Notes: a model not told the origin generated them from the letters alone. Shown: positions 21,380 through 59,423, counted from the first letter of the stretch. The stretch is 64,000 nt of DNA from Gemmobacter sp. (GCA_040398445.1 JBBAUB010000014.1:1884-65883); one strand, 5' to 3'. Numbers and translations are program-made.

Positions 21380-21400
21380 GGGCACCCCCCCTTGGCGGTA

Positions 21401-21415: not shown

Positions 21416-21568
21416 CAATAAAGGCTGACATGCCATTTCACAGCCGTCAATCCACCTGTCAATCTAAGAACAAGGGTCCGCGGTGCCATAAAAAATTGGG
21501 CAATTTGCGGCTCTGGCATTTCGCCCCCCTTCGTGGCGGGTGACATCAAAACGCACAGGAGACAAAGA

Positions 21569-24465: not shown

Positions 24466-24476
24466 GGAGCAAGCCC

Positions 24477-26261: not shown

Positions 26262-26302
26262 AGGGGCGCCGGTCGTTTCTACACCGTTGTTTGCCACGGC
26301 AA

Positions 26303-26334
26303 CGGGCCAGTCAGTTGCGGGACTGGCCCGTTTT
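26303..26334 (+). terminator. Rho-independent terminator after hyuB (pair 1)
   Basis: CGGGCCAGTC-loop-GACTGGCCCG followed by TTTT. Confidence 0.75.
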
Positions 26335-26419
26335 GCAGTGCATAACAGCTTGCACGCGAAACCCCTTTCTCTGTCCGCGCGGTGTCGCTAGCCTGACCGG
26401 CAAAGCAGAAGGCAAACCG

Positions 26420-33688: not shown

Positions 33689-34444
33689 TCAGTAGCGCCC
33701 GACGAGCAATCCTCCGTCCACGACAACGACCTGTCCGGTCATGTATCGGGCGCCGTTGGATGCCAGGAAAAGGATCACATCGGCGATTTCATCCGGCTCG
33801 CCGATGCGGCCCATCGGGATGAATTCGCCCGCCTTGGCGGCCCCTTCGGGACCAAGCGAGTTTTCCTTCGATAACAGTTGCGCGGTGCGGATATAGCCCG
33901 GTGCCACGCCGTTCACGCGGATGCCGTCTTTGGCCAGTTCGACGGCAAGCCCGCGCACCAACCCCACGACGCCGGACTTCGCCGCCGAATAGTGCACATG
34001 TTCGTCCCAGCCGTAGGCGACCCCCATGATCGACGACAGCGCGACGATGGCACCCTTTTTTCGCGCCTTCATTCCGGCCAGCGCCGGACGGATCACGCGG
34101 AAAATCCCCTTGAGGTCGATGTCGAAGGTGTGGTCCCACTTGTCATCGGTCATCGCAGGCAAGGGCACCTTGTGCGCGATCCCCGCGTTGGCCACGATCA
34201 CGTCGATTCCGCCCCTTGCGGCCTCGATCCTTGCCACGAGCGCATCGGCATCGGCGGTCGAGCGGACATCCAGCCGGTGATATTCGGCGCTGCCGCCCGC
34301 CGCCGTGATTTCGGCCACCACGGCCTGCCCTTCGGCATCCAGCACGTCAGTCACGACCACGTGTTGACCCGCGGCCCCAAAGGCCAGCGCGGCTGCACGG
34401 CCGATGCCGATACCCGCACCGGTGATAAGGACGGTTTCGCTCAT
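33689..34444 (-). CDS. Short-chain dehydrogenase/reductase
   Basis: VLITGAGIGIGRAAALAF...NAG...YSAAKSGVVGL. ATGA overlap with the upstream SDR. ORF 33689..34828 was trimmed. Confidence 0.85.
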   Translation of the reverse strand: MSETVLITGAGIGIGRAAALAFGAAGQHVVVTDVLDAEGQAVVAEITAAGGSAEYHRLDVRSTADADALVARIEAARGGIDVIVANAGIAHKVPLPAMTDDKWDHTFDIDLKGIFRVIRPALAGMKARKKGAIVALSSIMGVAYGWDEHVHYSAAKSGVVGLVRGLAVELAKDGIRVNGVAPGYIRTAQLLSKENSLGPEGAAKAGEFIPMGRIGEPDEIADVILFLASNGARYMTGQVVVVDGGLLVGRY

Positions 34445-35175
34445 AGCATCACATCTCCGGAATTCGGCCCAAGCGTCTGGCCCACGAACAGCGACGCGGC
34501 GGGCGAGCATAGAAAAGCCACCGCCTCGGCCACCTCGTCGGGTTCGCCAAAGCGGCCCAGCGGCAATTCGGCAGCCTTGGCGCGCTGCCAGTCTTGCGAC
34601 AGGCTGCGGACCAGCGGCGTGTTGATCGGGCCAGGGGCGACCGCGTTCACGCGGATGCCTTGCGCCGACACTTCGCGTGCCAGCGCCTTGGTCATGCCGA
34701 TGATCCCTGCCTTGGCCGCAGAGTAATGCACCAGTTCGACCCCGCCGATCTGGCCTAACTGCGAGGCGACGTTGACGATCACGCCCGACTTGCGAGCCAG
34801 CATCCCGTCGATGACGGCCCGCGTGCACAAGAACGTGCCGCGCAGGTGAACCGCGATCATGCGGTCAAAATCTTCCACTGTCAGCGTCTGGAACCGCCCC
34901 TGATGCACGTGGCCTGCACAGTTGACCAGATGCGTGACGGCACCGAAAGCTGCCTCGGTCTCTGCCACCATCGCAGCGACGTCGGCGGCATCCGACACAT
35001 CTCCGCCGATGCTGCGCGCGCCGCCGCCGATTTCGGCGGCCACGGCGCTCGCCGCGGCGGCACGGAAATCGTTGACCATGACGCTATAGCCATCCGCCGC
35101 CAACCGCAGCGCAATCGCGCGCCCGATGCCCGAACCACCACCCGTGACGATTGCGTTGCCCGAACTGCGGCTCAT
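34441..35175 (-). CDS. Short-chain dehydrogenase/reductase
   Basis: AIVTGGGSGIGRAIALRL...NCAG...YSAAKAGIIGM. ATGA overlap with the permease stop. The 648-aa ORF 34441..36387 is a read-through artefact. Confidence 0.85.
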   Translation of the reverse strand: MSRSSGNAIVTGGGSGIGRAIALRLAADGYSVMVNDFRAAAASAVAAEIGGGARSIGGDVSDAADVAAMVAETEAAFGAVTHLVNCAGHVHQGRFQTLTVEDFDRMIAVHLRGTFLCTRAVIDGMLARKSGVIVNVASQLGQIGGVELVHYSAAKAGIIGMTKALAREVSAQGIRVNAVAPGPINTPLVRSLSQDWQRAKAAELPLGRFGEPDEVAEAVAFLCSPAASLFVGQTLGPNSGDVML

Positions 35176-36023
35176 GCAATCTCCTCCTGCATCGCCATCT
35201 TCTTGGCGCGCCGCACCGACATGGCCATCAGGATGCCGTAGACCGACAGAAGCGCGAAGGAGAACAGCGTGGTCAGCACGCCGAAGGCAAAGATGTTGGG
35301 ATGGATTTCGACCGAGAAGGTCCCGTAGATTGCCAGCGGCAATGTCTGGTCCCGCCCCGAGGCAAACAGCGTGCGCGGGAATTCGTCGAGCGACAGCGTA
35401 AAGGCAAACAGCATCGCCGACAGCACGCCCGGGAAGATCAGCGGGAAGGTTACCTTGCGGAACGTGGTCCAGGGGTCCACGCCCAGCGACCAGGCCGCTT
35501 CCTCGACCGACGCATCGAAGCGGTTCAGGATCGCCAGCATGACAAGAAAGGCGAACGGAAAGGTATAGGCGACGTGGCTTGCAAAGGCGGTCGTATACCA
35601 ATGCCGCTCGATCCCGATGATGTTGTTGGCCAAGAGCGATGTGCCCAGACCCGTCAGCACGCCCGGAACCATCATGCCCAGCACGATCAGGTAAAAGACA
35701 AAGGCCGAACCCTTGAAGTTGCGCCGGAATGCCTGCGCCGACATCACGCCCAGCACGGTCGACACCACCATCGTCATAAGTGCCAGCACCAGCGACCGGA
35801 CCAGCGCCTCGCCAAAGGGCAAGGGCGCGATGCGCGACGGCGGGGTCAGGCCGAACACCTGCCGGTACCAATAGGTCGACCATTCGACGATCGGGAATTG
35901 CGGCCCGCCATCCGGCCCCTGCTGGAACGAGATGATCGTAAGCACCACGAAAGGCCCGTACAGGAACAGCACGAACAGCGCGACATACAGTCCAAGCGCC
36001 GGTTTGATGATACGCGATTCCAT
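35172..36023 (-). CDS. PotC-like ABC transporter permease
   Basis: Six TM segments and EAA-like loop EEAAWSLGVDPWTTFRKVTFPLIFPG. Confidence 0.85.
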   Translation of the reverse strand: MESRIIKPALGLYVALFVLFLYGPFVVLTIISFQQGPDGGPQFPIVEWSTYWYRQVFGLTPPSRIAPLPFGEALVRSLVLALMTMVVSTVLGVMSAQAFRRNFKGSAFVFYLIVLGMMVPGVLTGLGTSLLANNIIGIERHWYTTAFASHVAYTFPFAFLVMLAILNRFDASVEEAAWSLGVDPWTTFRKVTFPLIFPGVLSAMLFAFTLSLDEFPRTLFASGRDQTLPLAIYGTFSVEIHPNIFAFGVLTTLFSFALLSVYGILMAMSVRRAKKMAMQEEIA

Positions 36024-36026
36024 GGC

Positions 36027-36899
36027 TTAAAGCTCCCGCTTCAGATCGACGATCCGCAGCAAACCGGCGATGACGATGCCCATGACGATGGTCAGGACCA
36101 CCCCGACGACCGACGCCATCGCCCATTTCAGCGACCCGACCTGTGTGACGATGATATTGCCCAGCAGGTTGACCTTGCGGCCCGACAACGCGCCCGACGT
36201 GGCGAATTCGCCCAAGACCATGACCGACACGAAAATAGCACCCACCACGACGCCCGGCAGCGACAAGGGGAAGATGATCTTCCAGAAGATGCGCCCGAAT
36301 CCCGCGCCCAGGTCGCGGGCGGCTTCGATGATGTTGCGGTCGATCCGGCTCAGCATAAAAGCGATGGGACCGACCATGAACACGCAATAAATCTGCGTCA
36401 TGCCGATGATCACGGACAATTCGGTGAACAGCAGCACTTCGATGGGTTGCTGGATGATGCCGATCTTCAGCAGCACGATGTTGATCGCGCCCTCTTTGCC
36501 CAGCATCGGCCGCCAGGCCAGCACGCGGATCAGGAACGAGGTCCAGAACGGGATGACGCAGACCACCAGAAGCACGGTCGACAGCGTTTTAGACTTGACG
36601 AAAAGCCCCACGAACAGCGCGGTGGGGTAGCCCACGATGAAGGTGGTGGCCAGAACGATCAGCCAGATGCGGATCGTCGTCCAAAGCGACCCCGTATAAG
36701 TGTCGGAACTGAAGAACTGCTTCCAGCTTGCCAGCGTCGGATCGGACGAGATGTTGAAGGTCGTCTGCGTCCAGAACGAGACATAGACGATCATCGCGAT
36801 CGGCACGACAAGGAACAGCGACATCCACACGATGCCCGGGATCAGCAGCCAGCGCGTCACCTTTGACTGGCGGTCCTGAATGGTGACTGTGTCGGTCAT
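36027..36899 (-). CDS. PotB-like ABC transporter permease
   Basis: Six TM segments and loop IEAARDLGAGFGRIFWKIIFPLSLPG. Confidence 0.85.
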   Translation of the reverse strand: MTDTVTIQDRQSKVTRWLLIPGIVWMSLFLVVPIAMIVYVSFWTQTTFNISSDPTLASWKQFFSSDTYTGSLWTTIRIWLIVLATTFIVGYPTALFVGLFVKSKTLSTVLLVVCVIPFWTSFLIRVLAWRPMLGKEGAINIVLLKIGIIQQPIEVLLFTELSVIIGMTQIYCVFMVGPIAFMLSRIDRNIIEAARDLGAGFGRIFWKIIFPLSLPGVVVGAIFVSVMVLGEFATSGALSGRKVNLLGNIIVTQVGSLKWAMASVVGVVLTIVMGIVIAGLLRIVDLKREL

Positions 36900-37978
36900 A
36901 TCGTTGCCTCGCGGCCGAAAACGATGGCCTGTTCCGGGTTCCAGGTCAGAAGGTAATCTTGCTTCGGTTCGTAAATCTCGGGCGCGCCAAGGCTCAGGTG
37001 GTGCTCCATCTCGACCAGATGGCCTTGGCCGGCGTCGAAGAAGTTCATGATCGACGACCCGAGGTATTCCGACGCGATAAAGGTTGCCTTCAACGCGGGC
37101 CCATCCGATGCCTTGGCCGAAAGCGGAAGCACCTTTACCCGGTCATAACGCACTGCGTAGACATCGCGCTCGGCACGGGTCGCCGACGGGGCGCTGACTG
37201 CACCGAAGCTTCCGGTGAAGTTCCCCTTCGACAACGTGCCGTCGAACAGGTTGTAGCGGTTCAGGAAATGCGCCACGTCCGGCGATGCGGGGCTGTCATA
37301 CACCTCGCCCGGCGTTCCGGTCTGGATGATCGTGCCGCGGTCCAGCACGACAACACGGTCGCCCATCGCCAACGCCTCGGTCTCGCTTCCGGTCACATGC
37401 AGGAAGGTCACGCCAAGCCGCTCGCGGATCGCCCGCAACTCGCTGCGCATGCGCGAGCGCAGGTTTGCATCAAGCGCTCCGAGCGGTTCGTCCAGCAACA
37501 CGAGCTTCGGGCGCATCGCAAGGGTGCGCGCCAAGGCGACGCGCTGGCGCTGGCCGCCCGAAATCTGGTCGACGCCGCGCCCCTCCATGCCCGACAGGCC
37601 TACCAGATCGATCATCTCGGCAGCGCGCCGCTCGACCTCGGAAGCTGCCATCGCGGGTTTGCCGTGGGTCAAACCAAAGCCGACATTCTGCATCACGGTC
37701 AGATGCGGGAACAATGCGAAGTTCTGGAAGACGAACCCGATTCCGCGTTCGTGCGCCTGCACGTTGGTGATATCGCGCCCCTCGAAATAGATGCGCCCCG
37801 CTTCGGGTGCCTCGAATCCCGCGATCACGCGTAAAAGCGTTGTCTTGCCCGAACCCGATGGCCCGAGGAACGACAGGTATTCGTTCGCTCCAACCTCGAG
37901 CGACGCATCGTTCAGTGCGACCAGATCGCCGTAGCGCTTGGTCACGCCTTCCAGTCTGAAGACCGACGTGTCCACCAT
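36896..37978 (-). CDS. PotA-type ABC transporter ATP-binding protein (first ATPase of the operon)
   Basis: [35 protein letters not shown] prefer ATG 37978 (MVDTSVFRLEG) to ATG 38050, which lacks an RBS. Confidence 0.8.
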   Translation of the reverse strand: MVDTSVFRLEGVTKRYGDLVALNDASLEVGANEYLSFLGPSGSGKTTLLRVIAGFEAPEAGRIYFEGRDITNVQAHERGIGFVFQNFALFPHLTVMQNVGFGLTHGKPAMAASEVERRAAEMIDLVGLSGMEGRGVDQISGGQRQRVALARTLAMRPKLVLLDEPLGALDANLRSRMRSELRAIRERLGVTFLHVTGSETEALAMGDRVVVLDRGTIIQTGTPGEVYDSPASPDVAHFLNRYNLFDGTLSKGNFTGSFGAVSAPSATRAERDVYAVRYDRVKVLPLSAKASDGPALKATFIASEYLGSSIMNFFDAGQGHLVEMEHHLSLGAPEIYEPKQDYLLTWNPEQAIVFGREATI

Positions 37979-38085
37979 AACCTCGCCCGAAGTGCGACCT
38001 GCCCTCGTGGGACGGGTCTGATTGTTTTTGGCTTTAACCGAAGCACGCATGACGACGCGCCACTTCGGCTAAAACTGTACTTCGT

Positions 38086-48901: not shown

Positions 48902-49861
48902 GTGACACCTGCGACGCACAGTACAGACCACGTTCCCGCATCGGCCCGCGCCGGTCACTGGAATGCTGTGATCGCGCAGGCCTATTTCCCGCTCGACCTG
49001 ACGTTCCGCCAGCCTGCCCGCTTCGAAGGGCGGCTGGAACACAGCACCCTTGGCGAGGTGTCGCTGTCGCGCCTGCAAACCGAGCCTGTGCAATACGAAC
49101 GCCACCGCCGCCACATCTCGCGCACAACCGAGGAACAGTACCTTATCACCATCCCGCGCAAATCGCCGGTCGAGTTCAGCCAATCGGGACGCGAGGTGCG
49201 CTGCGATCCGGGCGGTTTCATCCTCGAACGTGGCGACGAACCCTATCGCTTTTCCTATGGCGCGGCGAACGACCTGTGCGTCATCAAGGTCGCAAAACCC
49301 GTCCTGTCGGAAAAGCTGCGCAACCCCGACCGCTTTTGTGCGCTGGTGTTCGACGGACGCGGGGGGATGGGGGCATTGTTCACCACCATGGCGCAACAGG
49401 TACAGCGCCAGACGGCTGCCGAACCGGCGACCGATCCGCTTGCCGGAACCGTGCTGGGGCGGCATCTGGTCGAGCTTTTGGCGCTTGCACTCGACCAAGG
49501 CAGCGACGTCGAAACGGGCGCGGCCTCGTCGGTGCGCGAGGGCCACCGCCGCCGCGCGCAGGCGGTGATCCTGTCGCAACTTTCGAACCCCGACCTGTCG
49601 CCCGAACTTGTGGCCGACCGCGTCGGCATCTCGAAACGCTACTTGCACGAATTGTTCGCCGAGGTGAACTCGACCGTCTCGCAATCCATCCGCGAACAGC
49701 GGCTGCGGGCGGCGCGTGACCTGTTGCAAATGCCCGGCCCCGGCCCGATGTCTGACATCGCCTATCGCTTCGGCTTTTCCGATCAGGCGCAGTTCTCGCG
49801 GCTGTTCAAGGCGATGTTCGGCCAGACCCCAAGCAGCTACCGCGCCAGCCAAACGCCCTAA
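48902..49861 (+). CDS. AraC-family transcriptional regulator
   Basis: C-terminal double HTH ...ISKRYLHELFAEVNSTVSQSIREQRLRAARDLL...MSDIAYRFGFSDQAQFSRLFKAMFGQTPSSYR. No ATG lies in the N-terminal part of ORF 48599..49861, so I chose in-frame GTG 48902 (TGGAG 9 nt upstream). The start is uncertain. Confidence 0.75.
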   Translation: MTPATHSTDHVPASARAGHWNAVIAQAYFPLDLTFRQPARFEGRLEHSTLGEVSLSRLQTEPVQYERHRRHISRTTEEQYLITIPRKSPVEFSQSGREVRCDPGGFILERGDEPYRFSYGAANDLCVIKVAKPVLSEKLRNPDRFCALVFDGRGGMGALFTTMAQQVQRQTAAEPATDPLAGTVLGRHLVELLALALDQGSDVETGAASSVREGHRRRAQAVILSQLSNPDLSPELVADRVGISKRYLHELFAEVNSTVSQSIREQRLRAARDLLQMPGPGPMSDIAYRFGFSDQAQFSRLFKAMFGQTPSSYRASQTP

Positions 49862-50676
49862 GCGGCACGCCCCGCCATCGTCACGGGTCCGCCCACGCGC
49901 CGCACGCGCAGGGCAACTGCGTCACCATCGGCATGGGCTTCCACCACAGCTTCTTGCCCCAAAGTCAGCGGCGACAGCCCCCGATAGGAAAACACCGCAG
50001 GCACCCGCCTCAGAACGCGCTCGGCCAGCACCATCATCGCCACGGCCTGCAACGGACCATGCACCACCGGCCCCGCGTAGCCTTCCACATTCCGCGCATA
50101 ATCGGCGTCATAATGGATGCGATGCCCGTTGAACGTCAGCGCCGAAAAGCGGAACAGGCGCACCGGATCGGCCAGCAGCGGCATTTGCGCCACCGCCGCG
50201 CCAAGTTCGGGCGCATCGGGATAAAGCACCGCAGGTGCATCCGGCGCTGGATCTTCGCGGTAAACCAGATCCTGCCGCTCTGACACGATCACAGTGCCGC
50301 CCACGCTGTAATCATGCCGCACCGACACAAAGATCAGCGGTCCCGTCGACCCCGTCTTTTCCGCGATCCGCTCGATCCGGCTGTCGCGTATGACTTCGTC
50401 ATCCACATGGAATGCGCCGTGAAAGGCAATCTCGCCCCCCGCCCACATCCGCCGCGTCAGGGCCAAGGGCGGCAACTCCAACCCCAGCCGCGGATGCCCG
50501 TCACGCCCCAGATCGGCGGGGGGATAGGCATCGGGACACAGCGCCCAGAACAGGCCAAGCGGAACCTCGCCTGTCGCAAGATCGGGCAGCGTGGCGCGAT
50601 ACTGCGCGATCAGTCGCGGCGAGAGTGTATCAACCCGCCGCGACCCGCGCCCGATCCAGTCGTCAAACGCGCCCAT
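49858..50676 (-). CDS. MaoC/HTD2-like double hot-dog acyl-CoA (enoyl-CoA) hydratase
   Basis: RMWAGGEIAFHGAFHVDDEV...FRFSALTFNGHRIHYDADYARNVEGYAGPVVHGPL resembles itaconyl-/mesaconyl-CoA hydratase-type proteins. Confidence 0.65.
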   Translation of the reverse strand: MGAFDDWIGRGSRRVDTLSPRLIAQYRATLPDLATGEVPLGLFWALCPDAYPPADLGRDGHPRLGLELPPLALTRRMWAGGEIAFHGAFHVDDEVIRDSRIERIAEKTGSTGPLIFVSVRHDYSVGGTVIVSERQDLVYREDPAPDAPAVLYPDAPELGAAVAQMPLLADPVRLFRFSALTFNGHRIHYDADYARNVEGYAGPVVHGPLQAVAMMVLAERVLRRVPAVFSYRGLSPLTLGQEAVVEAHADGDAVALRVRRVGGPVTMAGRAA

Positions 50677-50688
50677 GCGCCCCCCAGG

Positions 50689-51870
50689 TTACGGTTGCGG
50701 CCATTCGGGATCGACCAGACCCATCGGATAGGCATGGCCGAAATCCAGCGGCGGCTGGATCACGTATTTCCGGTCGAACGGCAGCCACGGATAGGCCGCC
50801 CCCGACCGCACGATATAGGGCCAGTCGGGATGCGCAAACAACGGACGGCCCAGCGCCACCATGTCGGCCGCGCCCGAAGTCAGCGCCGCTTCGGCCTGTT
50901 CGCCCTCGGCGATGCCGCCATTGGTGATGACGGGCTTGCCCGACGCACGCTTGAGCACGGTCGGCATCGGCGTCGGGTCAGCAGGGAACCGGTTGTCCAG
51001 ATAATTGAAGCTCGCCCAGTGCAGCGCGTCATAGGCCGAGTCTTTGAGCGCCGCGCCGATGGCTTCGGCATAGGCCGTGCCGCCCGGCCAAGCGCCCATG
51101 AAATCGTCGACCCCGTCCTGCGACAGCCGCAGGATCACCAGCTTGTCCGGCCCGATTGCGGCGCGGATCTTGTCGCCGACCAGCTTGGCGAAACGCACGT
51201 TGTTTTCGGGGCTGCCGCCGAAGTCGTCGGTACGCAGGTTGGTTTTCGGCGTGATGAATTGCCACAAAAGGTAACCGTTCGCGCCATGCACCTCGACCCC
51301 GTCGGCTCCGGCCTCGACCGCACGCTTGGCCCCTGCGGCAAAACCGTCGGCCACGGCGTGCAATTCGGCAACCGACAATTCACGCGCCAGCCCGAACGTG
51401 ACCTTGGGCCATGCGCCGTCGATGTTGCGGATGGTCTTTTCGTAGTCGTTGTCGGTGTAAAGGGTCCAGCCCTCGCTTTGCGTGGCCGATGCACTGACCG
51501 GAGGTTCGCCGCCCAGCGTGCGCGGATCGCAGACGCGGCCGCCGTGCATCAACTGGATCACGATCTTTGCGCCGTTGTCATGCACCGCATCGCAGACTTT
51601 TTTCCAGCCCGCCACATGGGCGGCATTGGCGATACCGGGTTGCGACAAGTATGCCCGCGACTGGAACGCATCCTGTTCATAGGTACCTTCGGTCACGATC
51701 AGCCCCAAACCGCCCCGCGCGCGCCGCGCGTAATAGGCGACCATCTCGTCGGTCGGCGTACCGTCGGGATGCGCCATCTGCCGCGTCAAAGGTGCCATGG
51801 CGATGCGGTTGCGCAAGGTCACGCGGCCCAGCGTGACGGGGGAAAACAGGGTGGGGAAGGCTTCGGCCAT
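50689..51870 (-). CDS. Old-yellow-enzyme family NADH:flavin oxidoreductase (ene-reductase)
   Basis: LFSPVTLGRVTLRNRIAMAPLTR...IQLMHGGR...GADGVEVHGANGYLLWQF. AGGAG RBS. ORF trimmed to ATG 51870. Confidence 0.85.
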   Translation of the reverse strand: MAEAFPTLFSPVTLGRVTLRNRIAMAPLTRQMAHPDGTPTDEMVAYYARRARGGLGLIVTEGTYEQDAFQSRAYLSQPGIANAAHVAGWKKVCDAVHDNGAKIVIQLMHGGRVCDPRTLGGEPPVSASATQSEGWTLYTDNDYEKTIRNIDGAWPKVTFGLARELSVAELHAVADGFAAGAKRAVEAGADGVEVHGANGYLLWQFITPKTNLRTDDFGGSPENNVRFAKLVGDKIRAAIGPDKLVILRLSQDGVDDFMGAWPGGTAYAEAIGAALKDSAYDALHWASFNYLDNRFPADPTPMPTVLKRASGKPVITNGGIAEGEQAEAALTSGAADMVALGRPLFAHPDWPYIVRSGAAYPWLPFDRKYVIQPPLDFGHAYPMGLVDPEWPQP

Positions 51871-51887
51871 GTTGGAAACTCCTGTAA

Positions 51888-52808
51888 TTACAGCCGTCCG
51901 GCCCAAATGCCGGAACGGACAAGATCGGAAATCTGGGCGCGGATCAGCCGCACCACCGCCTTGGTGACGGGGGCGGCGGCGCGATGGGGCGCGTGGGCAA
52001 GGATCAATTCGCGGCTGATGGCGGGGGTGAGGCGCTGCGCCATCAACCGCCCCGCCTGCAATTCGCGGTTGACGGCGGTCAGCGGCAGGATGGTGCGGAT
52101 GCCCCCCGATCCGACAAGATCGTGGATCGTCGGCAACGTCTCGAGCTCGATCGCCACGTTCAGCGTGACTCCCGATTTGGCCGCCGCCTCTTCGACCAGC
52201 ACGCGCAACCCGTGCGGCGATCCGGGCAAAACCAGCTCTTCGCCCGCCAACTGTGCCATGCTCACCTCGGACCCGTTGCCCAAAGGCGGCGCGTCGGGGG
52301 CGGAAATCAGGAACATATCCTCGAACAGCAGATGTTCGGCATCCAGCAGCGCGCTCGACTTCATCTTGTAAAGCACCGCAAGGTCCACCTTGCCCGCCGC
52401 CAGCCAGTCGGCCACATGGCCGCTGAACCCTTCCATGACCCGCATCCGAACCCGCGGCAAATCAGCCCGTATCTGGCGCAACAAGGGCGCAAGCAACACC
52501 AGCCCGACCGAGGGCGGCACCGCCAGCTTGACCGTCCCGTCCAATTCGCCCGCCGAGGCGCGCATGTCCTGCCGCAGCGCCTCGCGTTCGGCCAGTATCC
52601 CCCGCGCACGGGTCAGGAACACCTCGCCCGCATCTGTCAGAACCACGCCCCGCCCGTTTCGGTAGAACAGCGCCGTGCCAAGTTCGGCCTCCAGATCGCG
52701 CACGCGGCGGCTGAGCGCGGATTGCGCCGTATTGTTCTGCAACGCCGATTTCGAGAAACTCCCCGTCTCGGCGATGCTGACGAAATACTGCAGGTCCAGA
52801 AACTCCAC
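51888..52808 (-). CDS. LysR-family transcriptional regulator (LysR-2) embedded within the operon
   Basis: MEFLDLQYFVSIAETGSFSKSALQNNTAQSALSRRVRDLEAELG. It starts 3 nt after the hyuB (pair 3) stop. Confidence 0.85.
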   Translation of the reverse strand: MEFLDLQYFVSIAETGSFSKSALQNNTAQSALSRRVRDLEAELGTALFYRNGRGVVLTDAGEVFLTRARGILAEREALRQDMRASAGELDGTVKLAVPPSVGLVLLAPLLRQIRADLPRVRMRVMEGFSGHVADWLAAGKVDLAVLYKMKSSALLDAEHLLFEDMFLISAPDAPPLGNGSEVSMAQLAGEELVLPGSPHGLRVLVEEAAAKSGVTLNVAIELETLPTIHDLVGSGGIRTILPLTAVNRELQAGRLMAQRLTPAISRELILAHAPHRAAAPVTKAVVRLIRAQISDLVRSGIWAGRL

Positions 52809-52811
52809 CGC

Positions 52812-54587
52812 TCAGGCAGCCCGCATCCGTGCCCGCAAGCTTTGGGTCGCTGTTTCGTCCAAACCCCAGCCATAACCGTTCTTTACCGGCTGGAAGACAA
52901 CGCCATAAACCTCGCGTGCATGGTCGGGCGTGATGTACCCGTCCAAAAGGTCGTCCAACACCTTGGCCGGATCGCGGTTCAGCGGATGGCCGTAGCCGCC
53001 GCCACAGGGCGAGAGGTAGGTCACCACGTCCCCCAGTTCGGCCCGCATGCCGGAAAACTTGGCATCCACATCGCGCGGCGGCTGCCCGCTGGTGGCGTTT
53101 TCAATCCGCACGATGGCGGTCGCCCCCTCGTGCCCGCCAAAGATGCCCCACGGCACATCCTCGTTGCGGTCGCTTTCATGGGTCATGAACCCCGGCGTCA
53201 GGAAGCGTTGCGATTTCACCACGCCCATGCCGCCCCTGTATTCGCCCGCACCGGGGAACACATCGTCGCGGATTTCGTAGCGGTCGCAGATCATCGGCAG
53301 ATGCATGCCAAGGTCTTCCAGCGGATTGTTGCGGGTGTTGCGCATCAATTCCTCGATGGTGTCCGGCCCGTCCGAACGGGGCCGCGCACCCATGGCGGCC
53401 TCGTTCACCTCGATCAGCACCCAGTAATCCCCCGTATCGCGCAGACCGGAATAGGATGCAAAGGACAGGCAGGCCGCGTTTCCGGCAGTGCATTTGTCGG
53501 GCAGCACGGGGGCGAGCGCCTTGATGATCAGATCGACCACGCGCTGAATCTGGTTGAACCGCGCCTCGCAGGCGGCGGGCGCGATGGGGTTGAAGATAGA
53601 CCCCAAGGGCGCCGTCACCTTGACGGGGCGGAACGACCCCTCGTTCTGCGGGATGTACTCCTGATGGGTATAGGTATCTAGCAACAGCGCACGAAAGGCG
53701 AAGTAGCAGGCCACCTTGGTCGACCCCTCGAACGGCACGTTGAACGCGGTGGGCACCTGCGGCGACGATCCTGTCAGGTCGACCTCGACATCGTCGCCGC
53801 GCACCCGCACCGTCACCTTGATCGGCAGGCGAACGCCCCGCGTGCGGCCATCGTCATCCATGAAGCCTTCGGCAAAGTAATCCCCGTCAGGTATCTTGGC
53901 GATCTCGCGCCGCAGCATGGTTTCGGAATAGTCCATCAACTGGCTGGCGGCCTGTTCGACCGTATCGCGGCCATAGGTATCCATCAGCTCGCAATACCGC
54001 TTCACCCCCAACTCGGCCGATGCGATCTGCGCTTCAAGATCGCGCATCACCAGCCCCGGCACCCGCGTGTTGCCGCTGATATAGCGCCACAGCGTATCGT
54101 TGCGCTTGCCCGCCTCGACCAGCTTCAACCCGTTCAGCAGCATCCCTTCGGCAAAGACATCCGGCACGTCGATGATCAACCCCGGCGTGGCCGCCCCGAT
54201 ATCGAGATGGTGCGCGGTATTGGCGGAAAAACCGACCAGTTCGCCACGGTAGAAGATCGGCATGACGATCCCGATGTCGGGCGAATGGCTGGCCCCGAAA
54301 TAGGGGTGGTTGTGAATCACCACATCGCCGTCATGCCAGTCGGTTTTGGGAATGCTCTTCTCGATCCCGCGCAGATAACCGGGGATCGACCCGATATGCA
54401 TCGGCGTGGAATCGCTTTCGCACAGCGTGTTATAATCAAGGTCGAACAGCCCCGCGCCAAGGTCCTGGCTTTCGCGGATGATCGACGAATAGGACATGCG
54501 ATACAGCACGTTGCCCATCTGTTCGGCAATGGCATGCAACGCGCCGCCAATGACCTGAAGCGTGATCGGATCGATGGTCTTGGTCAT
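52812..54587 (-). CDS. hyuB: Hydantoinase B / oxoprolinase family beta subunit (pair 3)
   Basis: MTKTIDPITLQVIGGALHAIAEQMGNVLYRMSYSSIIRESQDLGAGLFD... 57 of the 70 N-terminal residues I aligned by eye are identical to pair 1. Confidence 0.85.
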   Translation of the reverse strand: MTKTIDPITLQVIGGALHAIAEQMGNVLYRMSYSSIIRESQDLGAGLFDLDYNTLCESDSTPMHIGSIPGYLRGIEKSIPKTDWHDGDVVIHNHPYFGASHSPDIGIVMPIFYRGELVGFSANTAHHLDIGAATPGLIIDVPDVFAEGMLLNGLKLVEAGKRNDTLWRYISGNTRVPGLVMRDLEAQIASAELGVKRYCELMDTYGRDTVEQAASQLMDYSETMLRREIAKIPDGDYFAEGFMDDDGRTRGVRLPIKVTVRVRGDDVEVDLTGSSPQVPTAFNVPFEGSTKVACYFAFRALLLDTYTHQEYIPQNEGSFRPVKVTAPLGSIFNPIAPAACEARFNQIQRVVDLIIKALAPVLPDKCTAGNAACLSFASYSGLRDTGDYWVLIEVNEAAMGARPRSDGPDTIEELMRNTRNNPLEDLGMHLPMICDRYEIRDDVFPGAGEYRGGMGVVKSQRFLTPGFMTHESDRNEDVPWGIFGGHEGATAIVRIENATSGQPPRDVDAKFSGMRAELGDVVTYLSPCGGGYGHPLNRDPAKVLDDLLDGYITPDHAREVYGVVFQPVKNGYGWGLDETATQSLRARMRAA

Positions 54588-54590
54588 GGT

Positions 54591-56690
54591 TCAGGCCCTC
54601 CCGTCGGTGCGGGCAATCACCAGATCGCCCAGTTTCATCACCGTCGCCACAAAGCCCGGCGGCACGATGGTGGTGGAATTCTGCTGCACGATGACCGCAG
54701 GCCCCACGACCGTATCCTGCGCCCGCAGCTTCATGCGGTCAAAACGCGGGGTCTGGATCGTTTCGCCGTCATCAAAGGTGGTGGGCCGCGCGTACAGTGC
54801 GGCTTCCGACGGGTTGCGCCGCCCGCCTTTTTCCAGCACCGGCAGGCGCAGCGTGTCGGACCGCGACGACCCGATCACCCGCAGCGTCACCATCTGCACC
54901 GCCTGATCTTCAAACGCATGGCCATATTCCGTGCGGTGCACTGCAAAGAACCGCCGCGCCATTTCCTGCGCGGTGGCAGCGGTAAACGGCCCCTCGGGCA
55001 CCGCCACCCGCAACTCGAAGCCTTGGCCGACATAGCGACATTCCGCGATCCGCTCGAAGCGCTGCCCTTCGGGGGCGATCCCGTCTGCCGCCAATTGCGT
55101 CGCCGCTTCGGCCTGCAAACGGTCAAACACCGCGTTGACCGCCGCGAAATCCGCGCCGCTGCCCGATTGCAGGATGGTCAGCGAAGACCGTGTGAATTCG
55201 TAGCGCGGTTCGGTCACCAACAGCCCCATCGCCGCCGTGATCCCCGGATGCAGCGGCGCGATCACGTTCTTGGCCGCGATGATCTGGCCCAGCGCCACCC
55301 CGTGCAGCGGACCCGCCCCGCCAAATGCCATCAGGCTGTAGTTCCGCGGGTCGATCCCCCGCGCCACGGAATTCGACGCAATCGCCAAGGCCATGGTGTT
55401 GTTGATGATCTTCAACACGCCCAAGGCCGCGTCCTTTACGCTCAGCCCCATCGGGTCGGCCAGATGCGTCTTGATCGCCGCTTCCGAAAGGCTGGCATCG
55501 ATATGCAAGCCTCCGCCAAGGAAATGTTCGGGGTCCAACCGCCCCAGCACCACCTGCGCATCCGTCACCGTGGGCAGCGTGCCGCCCCGCCCGTAGCAGG
55601 CCGGTCCCGGTTCGGCCCCCGCCGATTTCGGCCCCACGCGGAACGCACCGCCGCTGTCGACATAAGCGATAGACCCGCCGCCCGCCCCGATGGCATCGAT
55701 ATCGATCATCGGCACCAGCACGGGCATATGCGCAACCTCGGTGTCGCGCGGGTTCTTGATCGTCAATTCACCATTGCGGATCACGCTGATATCGGCGGAC
55801 GTCCCCCCGATGTCGATCGTGATGATCTCGCGCTGGTCGCAGGCCTCGCCCGTCCAGCGCGCGCCGATCACCCCGCCCGCCGGACCCGACAGCAACAGCC
55901 CCACAGGGTTGCGGCTGGCCTGTTCCACCGTCGTCACGCCACCGTTCGACTGCATGATACGGACATAGGCATTGACCCCCGCTTCGGCCAGACGCCGTTT
56001 GAGGTTGTCGAGATATCCCGCCACCTTCGGCCCGATATAGGCGTTCATCGCCGCCGTCGAAAAGCGTTCGTATTCGCGGATGGTGTTGACCACCTCGGAT
56101 GACGTGCAGACAAAGGCATCGGGCATCACCCGCCGCACAATCTCGGCGGCCTGCATCTCGTGGTCGGGATTGAGGAAGGAATAGAGGAACCCCACCACCA
56201 CCGCATCCAGCCCCCGCTCGGCGAACAGTTCTGCCGCCGACTCGACCTGGTCCAGCGCCAGCGCCGTCTCGACCCGCCCCGTCGGCGGCAAGATGCGCTC
56301 GTCCACCACGATCCTGTTGCGCCGCTTGATCAAAGGCGCACTTTGCCATGGCACATCGAATTGCAGGCTGAAGTTATGCGGCCGCTTGTGCCGCCCCATG
56401 TGCAGGATATCGCGGAAGCCGCGTGTGGTGATCATGCCCACTTCGGCCCCGTTACGCTCGATCACGATGTTCGTGGCGACTGTGGTTCCGTGAAACAGCG
56501 CGTCGATCTGCGCGGGCTGCACCCCCGCCATGGCGCATAATTCGACCACACCCTGCACCACCGCAATCGACTGGTCCGCAATGGTGGACGATACCTTGTG
56601 CGTGAACACCCGCTGCTTGCCACCCGCCTCGACCTGTTCCAGCACAAGGTCCGTGAACGTCCCGCCGACATCGACACCGACACGTATCAT
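54591..56690 (-). CDS. hyuA: Hydantoinase A / oxoprolinase family alpha subunit (pair 3)
   Basis: MIRVGVDVGGTFTDLVLEQ...GFRDILHMGRHKRPHNFSLQFDVPWQS parallels pair 1. ORF 54591..56765 was trimmed to ATG 56690. Confidence 0.85.
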   Translation of the reverse strand: MIRVGVDVGGTFTDLVLEQVEAGGKQRVFTHKVSSTIADQSIAVVQGVVELCAMAGVQPAQIDALFHGTTVATNIVIERNGAEVGMITTRGFRDILHMGRHKRPHNFSLQFDVPWQSAPLIKRRNRIVVDERILPPTGRVETALALDQVESAAELFAERGLDAVVVGFLYSFLNPDHEMQAAEIVRRVMPDAFVCTSSEVVNTIREYERFSTAAMNAYIGPKVAGYLDNLKRRLAEAGVNAYVRIMQSNGGVTTVEQASRNPVGLLLSGPAGGVIGARWTGEACDQREIITIDIGGTSADISVIRNGELTIKNPRDTEVAHMPVLVPMIDIDAIGAGGGSIAYVDSGGAFRVGPKSAGAEPGPACYGRGGTLPTVTDAQVVLGRLDPEHFLGGGLHIDASLSEAAIKTHLADPMGLSVKDAALGVLKIINNTMALAIASNSVARGIDPRNYSLMAFGGAGPLHGVALGQIIAAKNVIAPLHPGITAAMGLLVTEPRYEFTRSSLTILQSGSGADFAAVNAVFDRLQAEAATQLAADGIAPEGQRFERIAECRYVGQGFELRVAVPEGPFTAATAQEMARRFFAVHRTEYGHAFEDQAVQMVTLRVIGSSRSDTLRLPVLEKGGRRNPSEAALYARPTTFDDGETIQTPRFDRMKLRAQDTVVGPAVIVQQNSTTIVPPGFVATVMKLGDLVIARTDGRA

Positions 56691-56879
56691 TCCAGACCCC
56701 CGCTGATTGGCTTTGCCCAGACGATTGACGCACGGAATAGCGCAAGGACAAAGCGGATTTTGCATACCGCGCCATGGGGTCGAGGACGGTATCGCCAGCG
56801 CAGACTTGGCAAAAACATCAAGGAACGCAAGTGTTTAACCGACGGGATATATGACCAAAGCACAACCCGCCGCCGTGCC

Positions 56880-56896
56880 ATATCCAAACCGGATAT
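56880..56896. promoter_or_regulatory. Inverted repeat ATATCC-N5-GGATAT upstream of hyuA (pair 3)
   Basis: Perfect 6-bp arms in the 289-bp lower-GC spacer 56691-56979. A further GGATATAT occurs at about 56845. Confidence 0.35.
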
Positions 56897-56979
56897 CTGC
56901 TTTCACATGCAAGCTGCCCTTGGTGCACAAGATACCGGCGGCATTCGCATAACGAACCATGCCGCCGCGTCCGGTGCGG

Positions 56980-58101
56980 TCAGCCGAATTCCCGCCGCAG
57001 CGCCGCGCCATGCGCACCCTTGGCAGGCACAGGCCCCGTGCCGATCCCGCCATCGTCGAAGCGCACGCCGCGCGCCATCATCCGCACGGGGCCGGTAGGG
57101 CTGTCGACCGTCACGTGCCGCGCCTGTGGATGGCTGTCCAGATCGTCCAGCCCCGATATGCGCCCGCAGGCTATTCCCGCAGCATTCAACACCTGCATCG
57201 CCGTTTCGCGGTCCATCGCGGCCAGAACCGGCGCAATCATCGCCTCGACTGTATCACGATGCGCCACGCGGGCCACGTTCGTGGCATAGCGCGGGTCTTG
57301 GCCCAATTCGGGCTGCCCGAGCACATGCGTGACAAGCGCCACCCATTCGCGGTCGCTTTGCACCGCCAAAAGCACCTCGCGCCCGTCTGCGCAGGCAAAG
57401 GCGCCATAGGGCGCGATCGACGGGTGCCGCAGCCCCACCCGTGCCGGCCCCGCCCCGCCATAGACCGCCTGTAGATAGGGCACGTTCATCCAGTCGGCCA
57501 TGGTGTGAAACAGCGACACCTCGACCACGCGCCCCTGTCCCGTTCGCGCCCGCGCGATCAGCGATTGCAGCACGGCGGCAAAAGCAGTCTCGCCCGCCGC
57601 GATATCGCACACCGAAAGGCCCACCCGCGCCGCGCCCTCGGGCGTGCCGTTGATCGACAAAAGCCCGCTCTCGCCCTGTATCAGCATGTCATAGGCTTTC
57701 TGGTCGCGATAAGGCCCGTCTTCGCCATAGCCCGAGATCGACACGTAAATCAGCGCAGGATGCGCCACCCGCATCGCCTCGGCCCCGACGCCCAGCCGCT
57801 CTGCCGCGCCCGGCGCAAGGTTCTGCACGAAGACATCCGCCTGCCCGATCATCCGCGTCAGCACCGCCAGATCCGCTGCCTGCCGCAGGTCGAGACAGAT
57901 CGACTCCTTGCCACGGTTGATCCAGACGAAATAGGCGCTCTCGCCATGGACAAGCCGGTCGTAACCCCGTGCGAAATCGCCCTCGGGGCGTTCCACCTTG
58001 ATAACCCGTGCGCCCGCATCAGCCAGCCGCGACGTCGCCAAGGGCGCAGCCACCGCCTGTTCCAGCGACACCACAAGCACGCCCTCAAGATCGCGGCTCA
58101 T
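56980..58101 (-). CDS. Family III (CaiB/BaiF) CoA-transferase
   Basis: LEGVLVVSLEQAVAAPLATSRLADAGARVIKVERPEGDFARGYD. ATGA overlap with the acyl-CoA dehydrogenase stop. ORF 56980..58284 was trimmed. Confidence 0.85.
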   Translation of the reverse strand: MSRDLEGVLVVSLEQAVAAPLATSRLADAGARVIKVERPEGDFARGYDRLVHGESAYFVWINRGKESICLDLRQAADLAVLTRMIGQADVFVQNLAPGAAERLGVGAEAMRVAHPALIYVSISGYGEDGPYRDQKAYDMLIQGESGLLSINGTPEGAARVGLSVCDIAAGETAFAAVLQSLIARARTGQGRVVEVSLFHTMADWMNVPYLQAVYGGAGPARVGLRHPSIAPYGAFACADGREVLLAVQSDREWVALVTHVLGQPELGQDPRYATNVARVAHRDTVEAMIAPVLAAMDRETAMQVLNAAGIACGRISGLDDLDSHPQARHVTVDSPTGPVRMMARGVRFDDGGIGTGPVPAKGAHGAALRREFG

Positions 58102-59267
58102 GCCGATGGACCATAGCTTTTGGGCAGGCCAAGCACCTGCTCGGCAATGTAGCACAGGATCAGATTGGTGCTGATCGGTGCCACCTGATACAGCCGCGCC
58201 TCGCGGAATTTGCGCTCGACATCGTATTCCTCGGCAAAGCCGAAGCCCCCGTGGGTCTGCAAACAGGCCTCTGCGGCCTCCCAACTGGCATCGGCCGCCA
58301 GCATCTTTGCGGTATTCGCCTCGACCCCCGGATTTTGCCCTGCATCATACATCGCCGCCGCGCGGTAGACGATAGCCTCGGCCGCGAGCATGTGGGCATA
58401 AGCCCGCGCCAGCGGAAACTGCACGCCCTGATTTCGCCCGATGGGCGCGCCGAAGACCTTGCGCTCGCGCGCATAGGCCGAGCCTTTTTCCAAAAACCAC
58501 TTGGCGTCGCCGATACACTCGGCAGCGATCAGGATACGCTCGGAATTCATGCCCGACAGGATGTAGCGGAACCCTTTGCCTTCTTCGCCCACCAGCGCGT
58601 CGGCGGGAATGCGCACATCTTCGAAGAACATTTCCGTCGTCGCGTGGTTCATCATGGTGCGGATCGGGCGGATGGTCACACCTGCCAGCCCGCGCAAATC
58701 GACCAGAAATACCGAAAGCCCGTCGGTGCGCGAAACCGCTTCGGCGCGCGGCGTGGTCCGCGCCAGAAGCACCATCAGGTCGGAATGTTCGGCACGGCTG
58801 GTCCACAACTTCTGCCCGTTGATCACATATCCGTCGCCGTCCCGCCGTGCCGTGGTCTGCAGCGACAGCGTATCGGTGCCACTGCTCGGCTCGGTCACGC
58901 CAAAGGCTTGCAGCCGCAACCGCCCCGCCGCGATGTCGGGCAGGTAGCGCTGCTTTTGCGCGTCGGACCCATGCCGGAGCACCGTTCCCATCGTGTACAT
59001 CTGTGCATGGCAGGCCGCTGCATTGCAGCCCTGACGATGGATTTCCTCAAGGATCACCGCCGCTGCCGTCAAGCTTAGCCCCGATCCGCCAAAGGCTTCG
59101 GGGATCATCGCCCCCAGCCAGCCTGCGCGGCTCAACGCTGCCACGAATTCGGCCGGATAGGCCCGCCGCGCATCGAGGTCGCGCCAGTAACTTCCCGGAA
59201 AAGCCGCGCAAACAGCGGCAACGCCTTGCCTGATGTCGTCATATCCGGCAGTCGGGTGGATGCTCAT
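58098..59267 (-). CDS. Acyl-CoA dehydrogenase
   Basis: ...LQAFGVTEPSSGTDTLSLQT...GQKLWTSRAEHSD...QTHGGFGFAEEYDVERKFREARL. Confidence 0.85.
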   Translation of the reverse strand: MSIHPTAGYDDIRQGVAAVCAAFPGSYWRDLDARRAYPAEFVAALSRAGWLGAMIPEAFGGSGLSLTAAAVILEEIHRQGCNAAACHAQMYTMGTVLRHGSDAQKQRYLPDIAAGRLRLQAFGVTEPSSGTDTLSLQTTARRDGDGYVINGQKLWTSRAEHSDLMVLLARTTPRAEAVSRTDGLSVFLVDLRGLAGVTIRPIRTMMNHATTEMFFEDVRIPADALVGEEGKGFRYILSGMNSERILIAAECIGDAKWFLEKGSAYARERKVFGAPIGRNQGVQFPLARAYAHMLAAEAIVYRAAAMYDAGQNPGVEANTAKMLAADASWEAAEACLQTHGGFGFAEEYDVERKFREARLYQVAPISTNLILCYIAEQVLGLPKSYGPSA

Positions 59268-59405
59268 GTCGCCCTCCGTTGTCCTTTCCTTGGTGGCAGG
59301 AAAGCCGCCCGCAGGGAAATGATATCCCGCGCATCCAGATATCGCGCCTTGTCATGGCGGGGTGATGGCTCTGCCACCACCCCTTGCCACACCCCCACCC
59401 CACCG

Positions 59406-59423
59406 CTAACATGCTAGTATGAG
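59406..59423 (+). promoter_or_regulatory. 18-mer CTAACATGCTAGTATGAG: second copy of the palindrome plus -10-like element, facing the orphan permease operon
   Basis: 16 of 18 nt are identical to the minus-strand 18-mer at 18533-18550. It overlaps ATG 59419. Confidence 0.5.

Follow-up and report, generated by a model that had tools for sequence, protein, structure and literature searches.

A HyuA-HyuB block within a predicted methylsuccinate-type CoA-ester operon of Gemmobacter sp. and a possible alphaproteobacterial pathway of N-heterocycle breakdown

The gene cluster ich-mcd-mmgE-ict-ccl of Pseudomonas aeruginosa and Cupriavidus necator serves the itaconate/methylsuccinate pathway (Gonner et al. 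2025, PMC12290011). According to that work, the acyl-CoA dehydrogenase (ACAD) of the cluster, Mcd, is a (RS)-methylsuccinyl-C4-CoA dehydrogenase, the transferase Ict carries out the activation of methylsuccinate and of itaconate, Ich adds water to mesaconyl-C4-CoA, the PrpD protein serves as methylsuccinate isomerase (Msi) and Ccl cleaves citramalyl-CoA. Ich and Ccl act on 3-carboxy-substituted (succinate-backbone) CoA esters and not on glutaconyl-CoA. The module is described there as widely distributed, and the environmental origin of methylsuccinate as unclear. Here we analysed a stretch of 64,000 nucleotides from Gemmobacter sp. (GCA_040398445.1, JBBAUB010000014.1:1884-65883; called the window below), in which seven genes, all on the minus strand from 59267 down to 49858, combine a candidate module of this kind with a HyuA-HyuB pair (HyuA3 and HyuB3), a LysR-type regulator and an Old Yellow Enzyme (OYE) type ene-reductase. 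We put at about one half the probability that these genes belong to an integrated, conserved alphaproteobacterial pathway that breaks down a small N-heterocycle with a -CO-NH-CO- type ring and ends in the methylsuccinate route.

The locus shares with the P. aeruginosa and C. necator clusters a CoA-transferase of family III, an ACAD that falls into one orthologous group with theirs, an Ich-type double hot-dog hydratase and an associated LysR. Some relatives of the window cluster add an adjoining MmgE/PrpD gene (genomes G008, G109 and G277) or a Ccl gene (Agrobacterium rubi). It differs from the published clusters in that its operon is interrupted by HyuA-HyuB-LysR-OYE, that neither Ccl nor MmgE/PrpD is encoded in the window, and that LysR lies inside the array in the common direction instead of being divergent. 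Moreover, the module is here tied to ring-opening and deamidating enzymes, which points to an N-heterocyclic precursor and not to free itaconate or methylsuccinate.

Three further groups of systems can be compared. The lower nicotinate pathway of Aspergillus nidulans (HxnT, an OYE; HxnW, a short-chain dehydrogenase/reductase, SDR; HxnM, a cyclic imidase; HxnN, an amidase) proceeds by ene-reduction of an unsaturated N-heterocycle and SDR oxidation of a hydroxy-lactam to a cyclic imide; the ring is then hydrolysed to a half-amide, from which deamidation yields a dicarboxylate (PMC9304392). It uses the same families and the same logic, but it is a eukaryotic pathway for a six-membered ring, has alpha-hydroxyglutarate as its end product and lacks an ATP-dependent HyuAB, an ABC importer and a CoA-ester module. 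The HyuAB hydantoinases and lactamases (PDB 7HK5; HyuAB of Pseudomonas sp. NS671; caprolactamase CapAB, PMC8453981) have the two-subunit architecture and ATP-binding motifs of HyuAB3, and the coupling to a carbamoyl- or amide-hydrolase seen in some genomes is that of hyuABC; HyuAB3 is, in contrast, set among an OYE and a dicarboxylate-CoA module that hydantoin and caprolactam pathways do not use. In the anaerobic indoleacetate (iaa) cluster of Aromatoleum aromaticum, the HyuAB-like IaaCE opens a lactam ring (PMC8453981). The iaa cluster differs from the window locus in its substrate, 2-oxoindoleacetate, in its mutase-dependent downstream chemistry, in the organisms concerned and in lacking OYE, SDRs and Ich. 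The product of IaaCE is reportedly a substituted succinate that passes to a family III CoA-transferase for activation and on to an ACAD-type enzyme. An imidase and a half-amidase of Blastobacter sp. are likewise said, in work attributed to Ogawa, Shimizu and co-workers, to convert imides via half-amides to dicarboxylates, a route biochemically described for succinimide and maleimide that would feed the TCA cycle directly. As in that route, an imidase-family gene and an amidase gene adjoin in the window, but the Blastobacter route is said to involve no ATP-dependent enzyme, OYE, importer or CoA module. Every enzyme family of the Gemmobacter locus is thus known, and what appears to be new is the combination; no published description of it was found in an incomplete search of the literature, which is weak evidence of novelty.

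A predicted Mcd-Ict-Ich module

Pfam searches confirmed the family assignments of all seven genes. From its sequences, the set formed by the ACAD, the CaiB-type transferase and the gene first called MaoC is a predicted Mcd-Ict-Ich module of the itaconate/methylsuccinate pathway (PMC12290011). The first-pass annotation had proposed that a transferase, a dehydrogenase and a hydratase process dicarboxylate CoA esters here, and the assignment can now be sharpened to this module on the grounds of the hydratase structures and of the ACAD identity and motifs given below.

The dehydrogenase contains all three ACAD Pfam domains. Its identity to ACADs from ACAD-CaiB-Ich(-HpcH) operons is 61-74%, against 31% for the best paralogue in its own genome. 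In the phylum sample, two genomes of about 6 Mb from another class carry the order Ich-ACAD-PrpD-CaiB-HpcH with a divergent LysR, and this order is the published ich-mcd-mmgE-ict-ccl (PMC12290011). The window proteins are 62-63% (ACAD), 48-49% (CaiB) and 43-44% (Ich) identical to those of the two loci, and the motifs LIAAECIGD and ERKFRExRLYQVAPISTNLIL are common to the ACADs. The glutamate of the MCAD-type YEG motif is absent from the window ACAD and from those of the same relatives. Throughout the family API stands where MCAD has YEG, and AAECIGD is invariant. An invariant AAECIGD without a glutamate at the MCAD position suggests an IVD/LCAD-type position of the base in this family.

The transferase matches Pfam CoA_transf_3 (E 2e-103) and is 45-58% identical to the transferases of ACAD-CaiB-Ich operons. 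Its best NCBIfam matches are succinate-glutarate, oxalate and mesaconate CoA-transferases, all under the cut-off. For the Ich-like protein the only Pfam match is FAS1_DH_region, and the only PDB matches are 8KHG and 8HUC, the itaconyl-CoA hydratase of Pseudomonas aeruginosa (E 1e-48 over residues 3-239). The catalytic region of the hot-dog fold is conserved with respect to these structures, RMWAGG and FNGHRIHYD...VVHGPL being kept, and the protein is 36-51% identical to the products of the Ich genes of ACAD-CaiB-Ich operons. Contiguous ACAD-CaiB-Ich genes were found in at least 10 sampled genomes (loci L114, L115, L117, L119, L149, L152, L154, L158, L159 and L161). This operon is the usual alphaproteobacterial form, some examples having in addition an HpcH lyase and many an adjoining LysR; a Ccl-type lyase is present in L114, L119, L152 and the A. 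rubi cluster.

Recurrent linkage of the HyuAB and CoA-ester genes

HyuA3 carries the Pfam domains Hydant_A_N, Hydantoinase_A and Hydant_A_C. Its best solved relative is PDB 7HK5, described as an 'N-methylhydantoinase' (E 2e-197), and it also matches the 5-oxoprolinase 6YRA (E 5e-105). Both phosphate-binding motifs are found, DVGGTFTD at residue 7 and DIGGT at residue 293 (P1, DxGGTxTD, and P2, DxGGT, in PMC8453981). HyuB3 matches Hydantoinase_B (E 2e-154), and proteins from Agrobacterium, Roseibium and Chelatococcus, named N-methylhydantoinase B by their sources, share 76-79% identity with it. Its identity to the two other HyuB proteins encoded in the window is 64% (HyuB1) and 28% (HyuB2), and relatives at 64-79% identity occur across many alphaproteobacterial families. 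The short gaps on both sides of hyuB3 leave no space for a third small-subunit gene of the carboxylase gamma type. Identification with caprolactamase CapAB was rejected on the NCBIfam scores (540 for CapA and 223 for CapB, each against a cut-off of 1000), and so was identification with acetophenone carboxylase.

The OYE (Pfam Oxidored_FMN, E 5e-73) has the classical OYEs SYE1 and NemA as its closest structures and bears the HGANGY motif, with the His/Asn pair and the proton-donor Tyr, at residue 195. It was not accepted as NemA itself (NCBIfam score 179 for a cut-off of 403). Orthologues 61-67% identical to it stand beside HyuAB in six other genomes, the next paralogues in its own genome being about 32% identical. 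The regulator shows the Pfam domains HTH_1 (E 3e-21) and LysR_substrate (E 5e-39) and matches no NCBIfam equivalog at cut-off; LysRs that adjoin ACAD elsewhere, and the second of the two in the A. rubi cluster, are 36-41% identical to it.

Outside the genus, the two groups of genes meet in several arrangements. Genome G142 carries on one strand the order importer-SDR-SDR-binding protein-ATPase-amidase-HyuA-HyuB-OYE-(two transporter genes)-ACAD-CaiB. In G109, isochorismatase-OYE lies on one side of HyuB-HyuA and a divergent ACAD-CaiB-PrpD on the other, and in G277 PrpD-CaiB-ACAD is divergent from HyuA-HyuB. In three further genomes (G238, G368 and G059) the OYE is divergent from HyuA-HyuB with no CoA module near. 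All parts are held by a single co-directional cluster of 21 genes in Agrobacterium rubi (GCA_013320895.1), with the order OYE, ABC ATPase, two permeases, two SDRs, binding protein, ATPase, HyuA, HyuB, amidase, LysR, LysR, ACAD, CaiB, Ich-like, HpcH lyase, ETF-beta, ETF-alpha and ETF-QO. On the contig examined, no related gene lies upstream of the A. rubi OYE. The best NCBIfam match of the HpcH lyase is the RipC/Ccl lyase of itaconate degradation, below the cut-off. As a separate observation, the two transporter genes between OYE and ACAD-CaiB in G142 (L053:6267-7597) encode an ABC ATPase and a CbiQ-type (ECF-like) membrane component, which may be a second uptake system for the same pathway.

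A HyuAB pair of this subtype thus lies within 5 kb of ACAD-CaiB in G142, in G109 and G277, in A. rubi and in the present genus, that is in four layouts, the chance of such proximity being about 0.2% per genome. Because this neighbourhood of a few kb recurs in four or five independent layouts against that low expectation, the comparison argues for a functional link between the two halves in one pathway, a link that would have arisen independently several times. In the class sample, ACAD was detected in 35 of 40 HyuB-positive genomes and in 87 of 360 others, figures that are indicative only, the genomes being related. In the comparative genomics that the first-pass annotation had proposed, the gene order is kept among congeners (see below) and the gene set recurs in other families in other orders, far beyond chance.

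The functional unit is, on the evidence of orthology, larger than the seven genes, which are then one half of it, since the orthologues of an importer/SDR/amidase operon found at 28.9-38.0 kb of the window are joined to HyuAB in other genomes. Searching the window genome with the A. rubi proteins by tblastn, we found that its importer, both SDRs, binding protein, second ATPase and amidase are 40-75% identical to the products of the A. rubi genes around HyuA-HyuB. The same set is contiguous with HyuA-HyuB in eight other genomes, and in seven genomes besides A. rubi orthologues at 52-82% identity occupy the same position. For the SDRs only generic FabG-like NCBIfam matches were obtained; the binding protein, for which neither a solved relative nor an NCBIfam match turned up, gives no hint of its ligand.

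The last gene of this operon occupies the place where HyuA-HyuB stand in the importer operons of other genomes. Its product (Pfam Polysacc_deac_1) matches PDB 3QBU, the Helicobacter protein HpPgdA, with E 1.2e-146 over 291 residues (35-325), and PuuE allantoinase with only 1e-19. Bokor et al. (2022, PMC9304392) single out 3QBU as the structure nearest to HxnM, the cyclic imidase of the fungus, and a cyclic imide hydrolase of P. putida shares 64% identity with HxnM. The family occurs in 32 of the 401 class genomes, 20 of the 31 others being also HyuB-positive, and in five genomes (G273, G185, G109, G036 and G191) it lies on the same contig as HyuAB, 2-20 kb apart. Its conservation between an alphaproteobacterium and Helicobacter pylori is strikingly high.

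Within the genus, at least six congeners (G005, G021, G019, G022, G002 and G012) share the order ACAD-CaiB-[gap]-HyuA3-HyuB3-LysR-OYE-Ich-(AraC)-HyuB2, with proteins 65-97% identical. This order is best read, from the comparison with the usual operon form, as the insertion of a block (D-carbamoylase)-HyuA-HyuB-LysR-OYE between CaiB and Ich of an ancestral ACAD-CaiB-Ich operon. The locus would then be a case of a catabolic block entering an existing operon with the tight gene spacing intact. In five of the seven compared genomes of the genus (G005, G021, G022, G002 and G012), the gap between CaiB and HyuA measures about 1.2-1.3 kb and contains a D-carbamoylase gene. For instance, the gap of G005 (L013:7112-8053) is occupied by a carbon-nitrogen hydrolase gene whose product matches the Agrobacterium N-carbamoyl-D-amino-acid hydrolase with E 1e-123. 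The gene is absent from this position in the window and in G019. No remnant of it was detected by tblastn in the spacer of the window, and just the two ends of the spacer align with the congeners. A copy 82% identical exists on contig C21 of the window genome (22598-29668), in a cluster of classical type with a D-hydantoinase and a second PotD-type ABC importer.

Three side observations concern these congeners. G008 (L019, C151; 11864-15176 and 18637 onward) has an overlapping ACAD-PrpD-Ich operon followed by a convergent aldehyde dehydrogenase gene and by LysR, GntR and CaiB genes, and no HyuAB; its ACAD and CaiB are 87% and 86% identical to those of the window, and the locus may be a methylsuccinate module without the hyu insertion. 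In G012 (L018, C1:2166000-2185000), Ich-like, OYE and HyuA2 each align as two overlapping pieces in different frames, reflecting either frameshifted pseudogenes or indel errors of the assembly. G022 (L016, 594-4460) and G002 (L017, 14628-18502) carry directly upstream of ACAD an additional HyuA/HyuB pair, 57% and 64-65% identical to pair 3, which brings the number of pairs there to four.

Proposed pathway and rival explanations

From the families, orthology, synteny and repeated co-location reported above, we infer a substrate, a set of reactions and their order. The partner hydrolase of HyuAB is an amidase-signature enzyme in most genomes, an isochorismatase-type enzyme in several and a D-carbamoylase in the congeners; beside hyuAB3 of the window no isochorismatase-type amidase is found, and the only NCBIfam match of the isochorismatase-family partners of relatives is the biuret hydrolase BiuH. 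Because the partner is always an amide or ureide hydrolase, the ring-opened product would end in -CO-NH2, and such a terminal amide would point to a ring of the imide or of the hydantoin/dihydropyrimidine type, as opposed to a simple lactam. Since the CoA module needs a succinate-backbone dicarboxylate, which a hydantoin cannot supply, an imide is preferred to a hydantoin. Our best guess of the substrate, held with less assurance than the pathway itself, is an alkyl-maleimide/succinimide-type ring yielding methylsuccinate, a hydantoin-type ring being possible.

In the most economical route, a hydroxy- or unsaturated methyl-substituted pyrrolinone or maleimide would be imported by the PotD-type ABC system at 31-38 kb. 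The two SDRs would oxidise hydroxy-lactam forms and the OYE would reduce the activated C=C bond, to give a saturated dioxo ring (methylsuccinimide). OYE enzymes reduce maleimides and citraconimide. The ring would then be opened to the half-amide (methylsuccinamate), either by HyuAB3, which would consume ATP, or by the imide-hydrolase homologue encoded at 28.9 kb, and the amidase (in relatives the D-carbamoylase or isochorismatase-type enzyme) would release ammonia and a substituted succinate, most likely methylsuccinate. CaiB, as Ict, would form methylsuccinyl-C4-CoA, the ACAD, as Mcd, mesaconyl-C4-CoA, and the Ich-like hydratase citramalyl-CoA. Cleavage to acetyl-CoA and pyruvate would fall to a lyase encoded in the cluster in A. 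rubi and elsewhere in the genome here, as one of two CitE/Ccl-like genes, one of which adjoins a RipB/Ich-like hydratase. The first-pass annotation had suggested a route of ring reduction, ring opening and CoA-ester processing: this outline stands, its two halves being linked by the recurrent co-location and the A. rubi cluster, but it lacked the deamidation step and the importer, both of which lie at 28.9-38.0 kb.

If this reading is true, it links one HyuAB pair, among the many alphaproteobacterial ones not yet characterised, to a class of substrates and a role in physiology, defines a complete route from an N-heterocycle to acetyl-CoA and pyruvate, and provides the methylsuccinate module with a natural upstream source. 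The hypothesis is directly testable in A. rubi, where all parts stand in one place in a named assembly. A more specific version, which we regard as doubtful, is a bacterial pathway from alkyl-maleimides, hydroxypyrrolinones or succinimides (for example methyl-maleimides from oxidised chlorophylls, bilins and other pyrroles) to methylsuccinate and ammonia, with HyuAB3-type enzymes acting as ATP-dependent imidases; if true, it would be a natural aerobic source of methylsuccinate. N-carbamoyl-amino acids are isosteric with succinamates, and 5-methylhydantoin with methylsuccinimide; hydantoin-type enzymes could plausibly have been recruited on that basis. The N-methylhydantoinase of P. putida 77 is reported to turn over succinimide and glutarimide as well.

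Several points weigh against the integrated pathway. No Ccl lyase (HpcH/CitE fold) is encoded in the 64-kb window, and the best Ccl-like matches in the genome, on contigs C3 and C1, are only 32-33% identical and below the NCBIfam cut-offs. MmgE/PrpD (Msi) is missing from the cluster, from the scanned congener arrays and from the window, which is a weak point. The ACAD family is very common, being present in 123 of the 401 class genomes (31%) at 60% identity or more, and often stands alone, without CaiB or Ich in 13 of 20 sampled loci; the specificity assigned to it here is not certain and rests on context and identity. The importer operon is 16.7 kb away from the seven genes. The commonest form of the HyuAB operon has neither OYE nor CoA genes, so that the core system may handle several related rings, the CoA module being an accessory that serves one of these. 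Hydrolysis of an imide needs no ATP and an imidase homologue is present, which leaves the role of HyuAB on an imide unexplained. Finally, an N-methylhydantoinase as best solved relative of HyuA3, together with several ureide-type partners, agrees with a hydantoin substrate, from which an amino acid rather than a dicarboxylate would be formed.

The first rival explanation is one that we consider unlikely, yet ahead of the other two below: separate modules would stand side by side in a catabolic island, a methylsuccinate/itaconate module (ACAD-CaiB and Ich) and a nitrogen-scavenging one for hydantoin or N-methylhydantoin (HyuAB and a carbamoyl-hydrolase) giving an amino acid, with the OYE serving either or acting in detoxification. 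The match of HyuA3 to 7HK5 and the names of the HyuB3 relatives agree with it, as do the D-carbamoylase gene adjoining hyuA3 in congeners and the isochorismatase-family partners of other genomes. The isochorismatase family has the fold of N-carbamoylsarcosine amidase. The commonest operon form devoid of CoA genes, the spacer dividing two units and the presence of three HyuAB pairs and further hydrolases in the window can be read in the same sense. However, independence of the two modules does not accord with HyuAB lying at most 5 kb from ACAD-CaiB in four layouts against a chance of about 0.2% per genome, nor with a hyu block that in this genus lies inside the ACAD-CaiB-Ich operon, with gaps of 3 to 17 nt up to Ich, and N-methylhydantoin breakdown offers no role for two SDRs and an OYE.

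In a second rival reading, an extended C5-dicarboxylate cluster, which seems quite improbable, the OYE would reduce itaconate, citraconate or mesaconate (or their half-amides) to methylsuccinate. The ring opened by HyuAB would then be not an imide but a lactam of the substituted 5-oxoproline type, such as one derived from 4-methylene- or 4-methyl-glutamine. PMC12290011 cites an engineered route in which citraconate is turned into methylsuccinate by OYE-type enoate reductases, HyuA3 matches the 5-oxoprolinase 6YRA, and an amidase is part of the system; but the OYE accompanies HyuAB even where no CoA module is near (G238, G368 and G059), none of the clusters seen contains the aminotransferase or 2-oxoacid dehydrogenase that a glutamate-type product would require, and the amide/ureide-hydrolase partners indicate a product with a terminal amide. 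A six-membered ring of the fungal nicotinate type, which we find more improbable again, would be a hydroxypyridone reduced by OYE and oxidised by SDR to a glutarimide-type imide, then opened and deamidated to (hydroxy)glutarate and processed as glutaryl-CoA by CaiB and ACAD. The same four families act in A. nidulans, the best NCBIfam match of CaiB is the succinate-glutarate CoA-transferase and the second-best of the ACAD a non-decarboxylating glutaryl-CoA dehydrogenase, both matches being far below cut-off. Against it, the Ich-type hydratase and the Ccl-type lyase of A. rubi belong to enzymes that act on succinate-backbone CoA esters and not on glutaconyl-CoA (PMC12290011), the ACAD groups with those of ich-mcd-ict-ccl clusters, and no pyridine hydroxylase is found in the clusters. 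The integrated pathway from a -CO-NH-CO- type ring to the methylsuccinate route is the reading that we retain.

Regulation, gene calls and neighbouring genes

The region between ACAD and the divergent ABC permease/FucU operon upstream of it, 151 bp in length, contains a GATATC-N11-GATATC motif which is unique in the window (0.01 expected) and whose first GATATC half is conserved with its flanks in congeners. It is a candidate LysR box. GGATATC was rejected as a shared operator word, its 16 matches in the window being mostly intragenic and not specific, and no motif common to the ACAD upstream region and the hyuA3 spacer could be established. A scan of 49.7-59.5 kb for promoter and terminator consensus sequences gave nothing above the shuffled expectation, with no terminator or sigma-70 match in the spacer. 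Among sequencing runs, those listed as containing the stretch are all freshwater metagenome DNA runs, which may be its source, and no RNA run is among them. The mid-operon LysR had been called unusual in the first-pass annotation: it is indeed co-directional and inside the array, but such an arrangement recurs in A. rubi, in two copies.

The open reading frame (ORF) table and the sequence bear out what the same annotation gave (Table 1): seven genes in the stated order, an ATGA overlap, a spacer of 289 bp and gaps of 3, 3, 17 and 12 nt. The ATG of CaiB overlaps the TGA of ACAD (gcATGAgc), the two genes being translationally coupled. The start of HyuA3 was set at 56690, where every orthologue alignment begins; a longer ORF from 56765 was discarded, its Pfam match beginning only at residue 28. 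Similarly, the longest ORF of the OYE, from a TTG at 51906, would overlap LysR and was not used.

Table 1. Coordinates of the seven-gene array, its flanking intergenic regions and the importer/SDR/amidase operon in the window
Feature	Position	Strand	Remark
Divergent promoter region, ACAD / ABC permease operon	59268-59418		GATATC-N11-GATATC at 59321-59343
ACAD	58098-59267	minus	Mcd type, candidate methylsuccinyl-C4-CoA dehydrogenase
CaiB/BaiF family III CoA-transferase	56980-58101	minus	Ict-like; ATGA overlap with ACAD
Spacer CaiB/hyuA3	56691-56979		289 bp
HyuA3	54591-56690	minus	ATP-binding large subunit; predicted ATP-dependent cyclic-amide hydrolase, N-methylhydantoinase-like
HyuB3	52812-54587	minus	Predicted hydrolytic subunit; 3-nt gap from hyuA3
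LysR-type regulator	51888-52808	minus	GTG start; 3 nt after hyuB3, 17 nt before OYE
Old Yellow Enzyme-type ene-reductase	50689-51870	minus	17-nt gap from LysR
Double hot-dog hydratase, Ich-like	49858-50676	minus	Itaconyl-CoA isomerase / mesaconyl-C4-CoA hydratase type; 272 aa; 12-nt gap from OYE
ABC ATPase	36896-38050	minus	
ABC permease	36027-36899	minus	
ABC permease	35172-36023	minus	
SDR1	34441-35178	minus	
SDR2	33689-34435	minus	
Binding protein	32411-33631	minus	
Second ATPase	31241-32341	minus	
Amidase-signature amidase	29878-31236	minus	NCBIfam PRK06102, 595 for a cut-off of 559
Cyclic-imide-hydrolase-family protein	28941-29843	minus	HpPgdA/HxnM/PuuE-like; last gene of importer operon

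At its 3' end, the array meets a convergent AraC gene, whose stop codon overlaps the array end and which is part of a second HyuB-HyuA-LamB operon. In all, the window carries three HyuAB pairs and further hydrolases. The third pair, HyuA1/HyuB1, lies in the region 22387-27627 (plus strand) / 20483-21436 (minus strand) with a GNAT acetyltransferase, a cupin-SnoaL fusion and a divergent LysR. Its subunits are 58% (HyuA1) and 64% (HyuB1) identical to HyuA3 and HyuB3, and the HyuAB proteins of G109 and G277, beside OYE or ACAD-CaiB-PrpD, score slightly nearer to pair 1 than to pair 3. The sizes of HyuA1 and HyuB1, 692 and 594 amino acids, are those of the Paracoccus proteins that match the N-termini of the P. 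putida 77 N-methylhydantoinase (PMC8453981).

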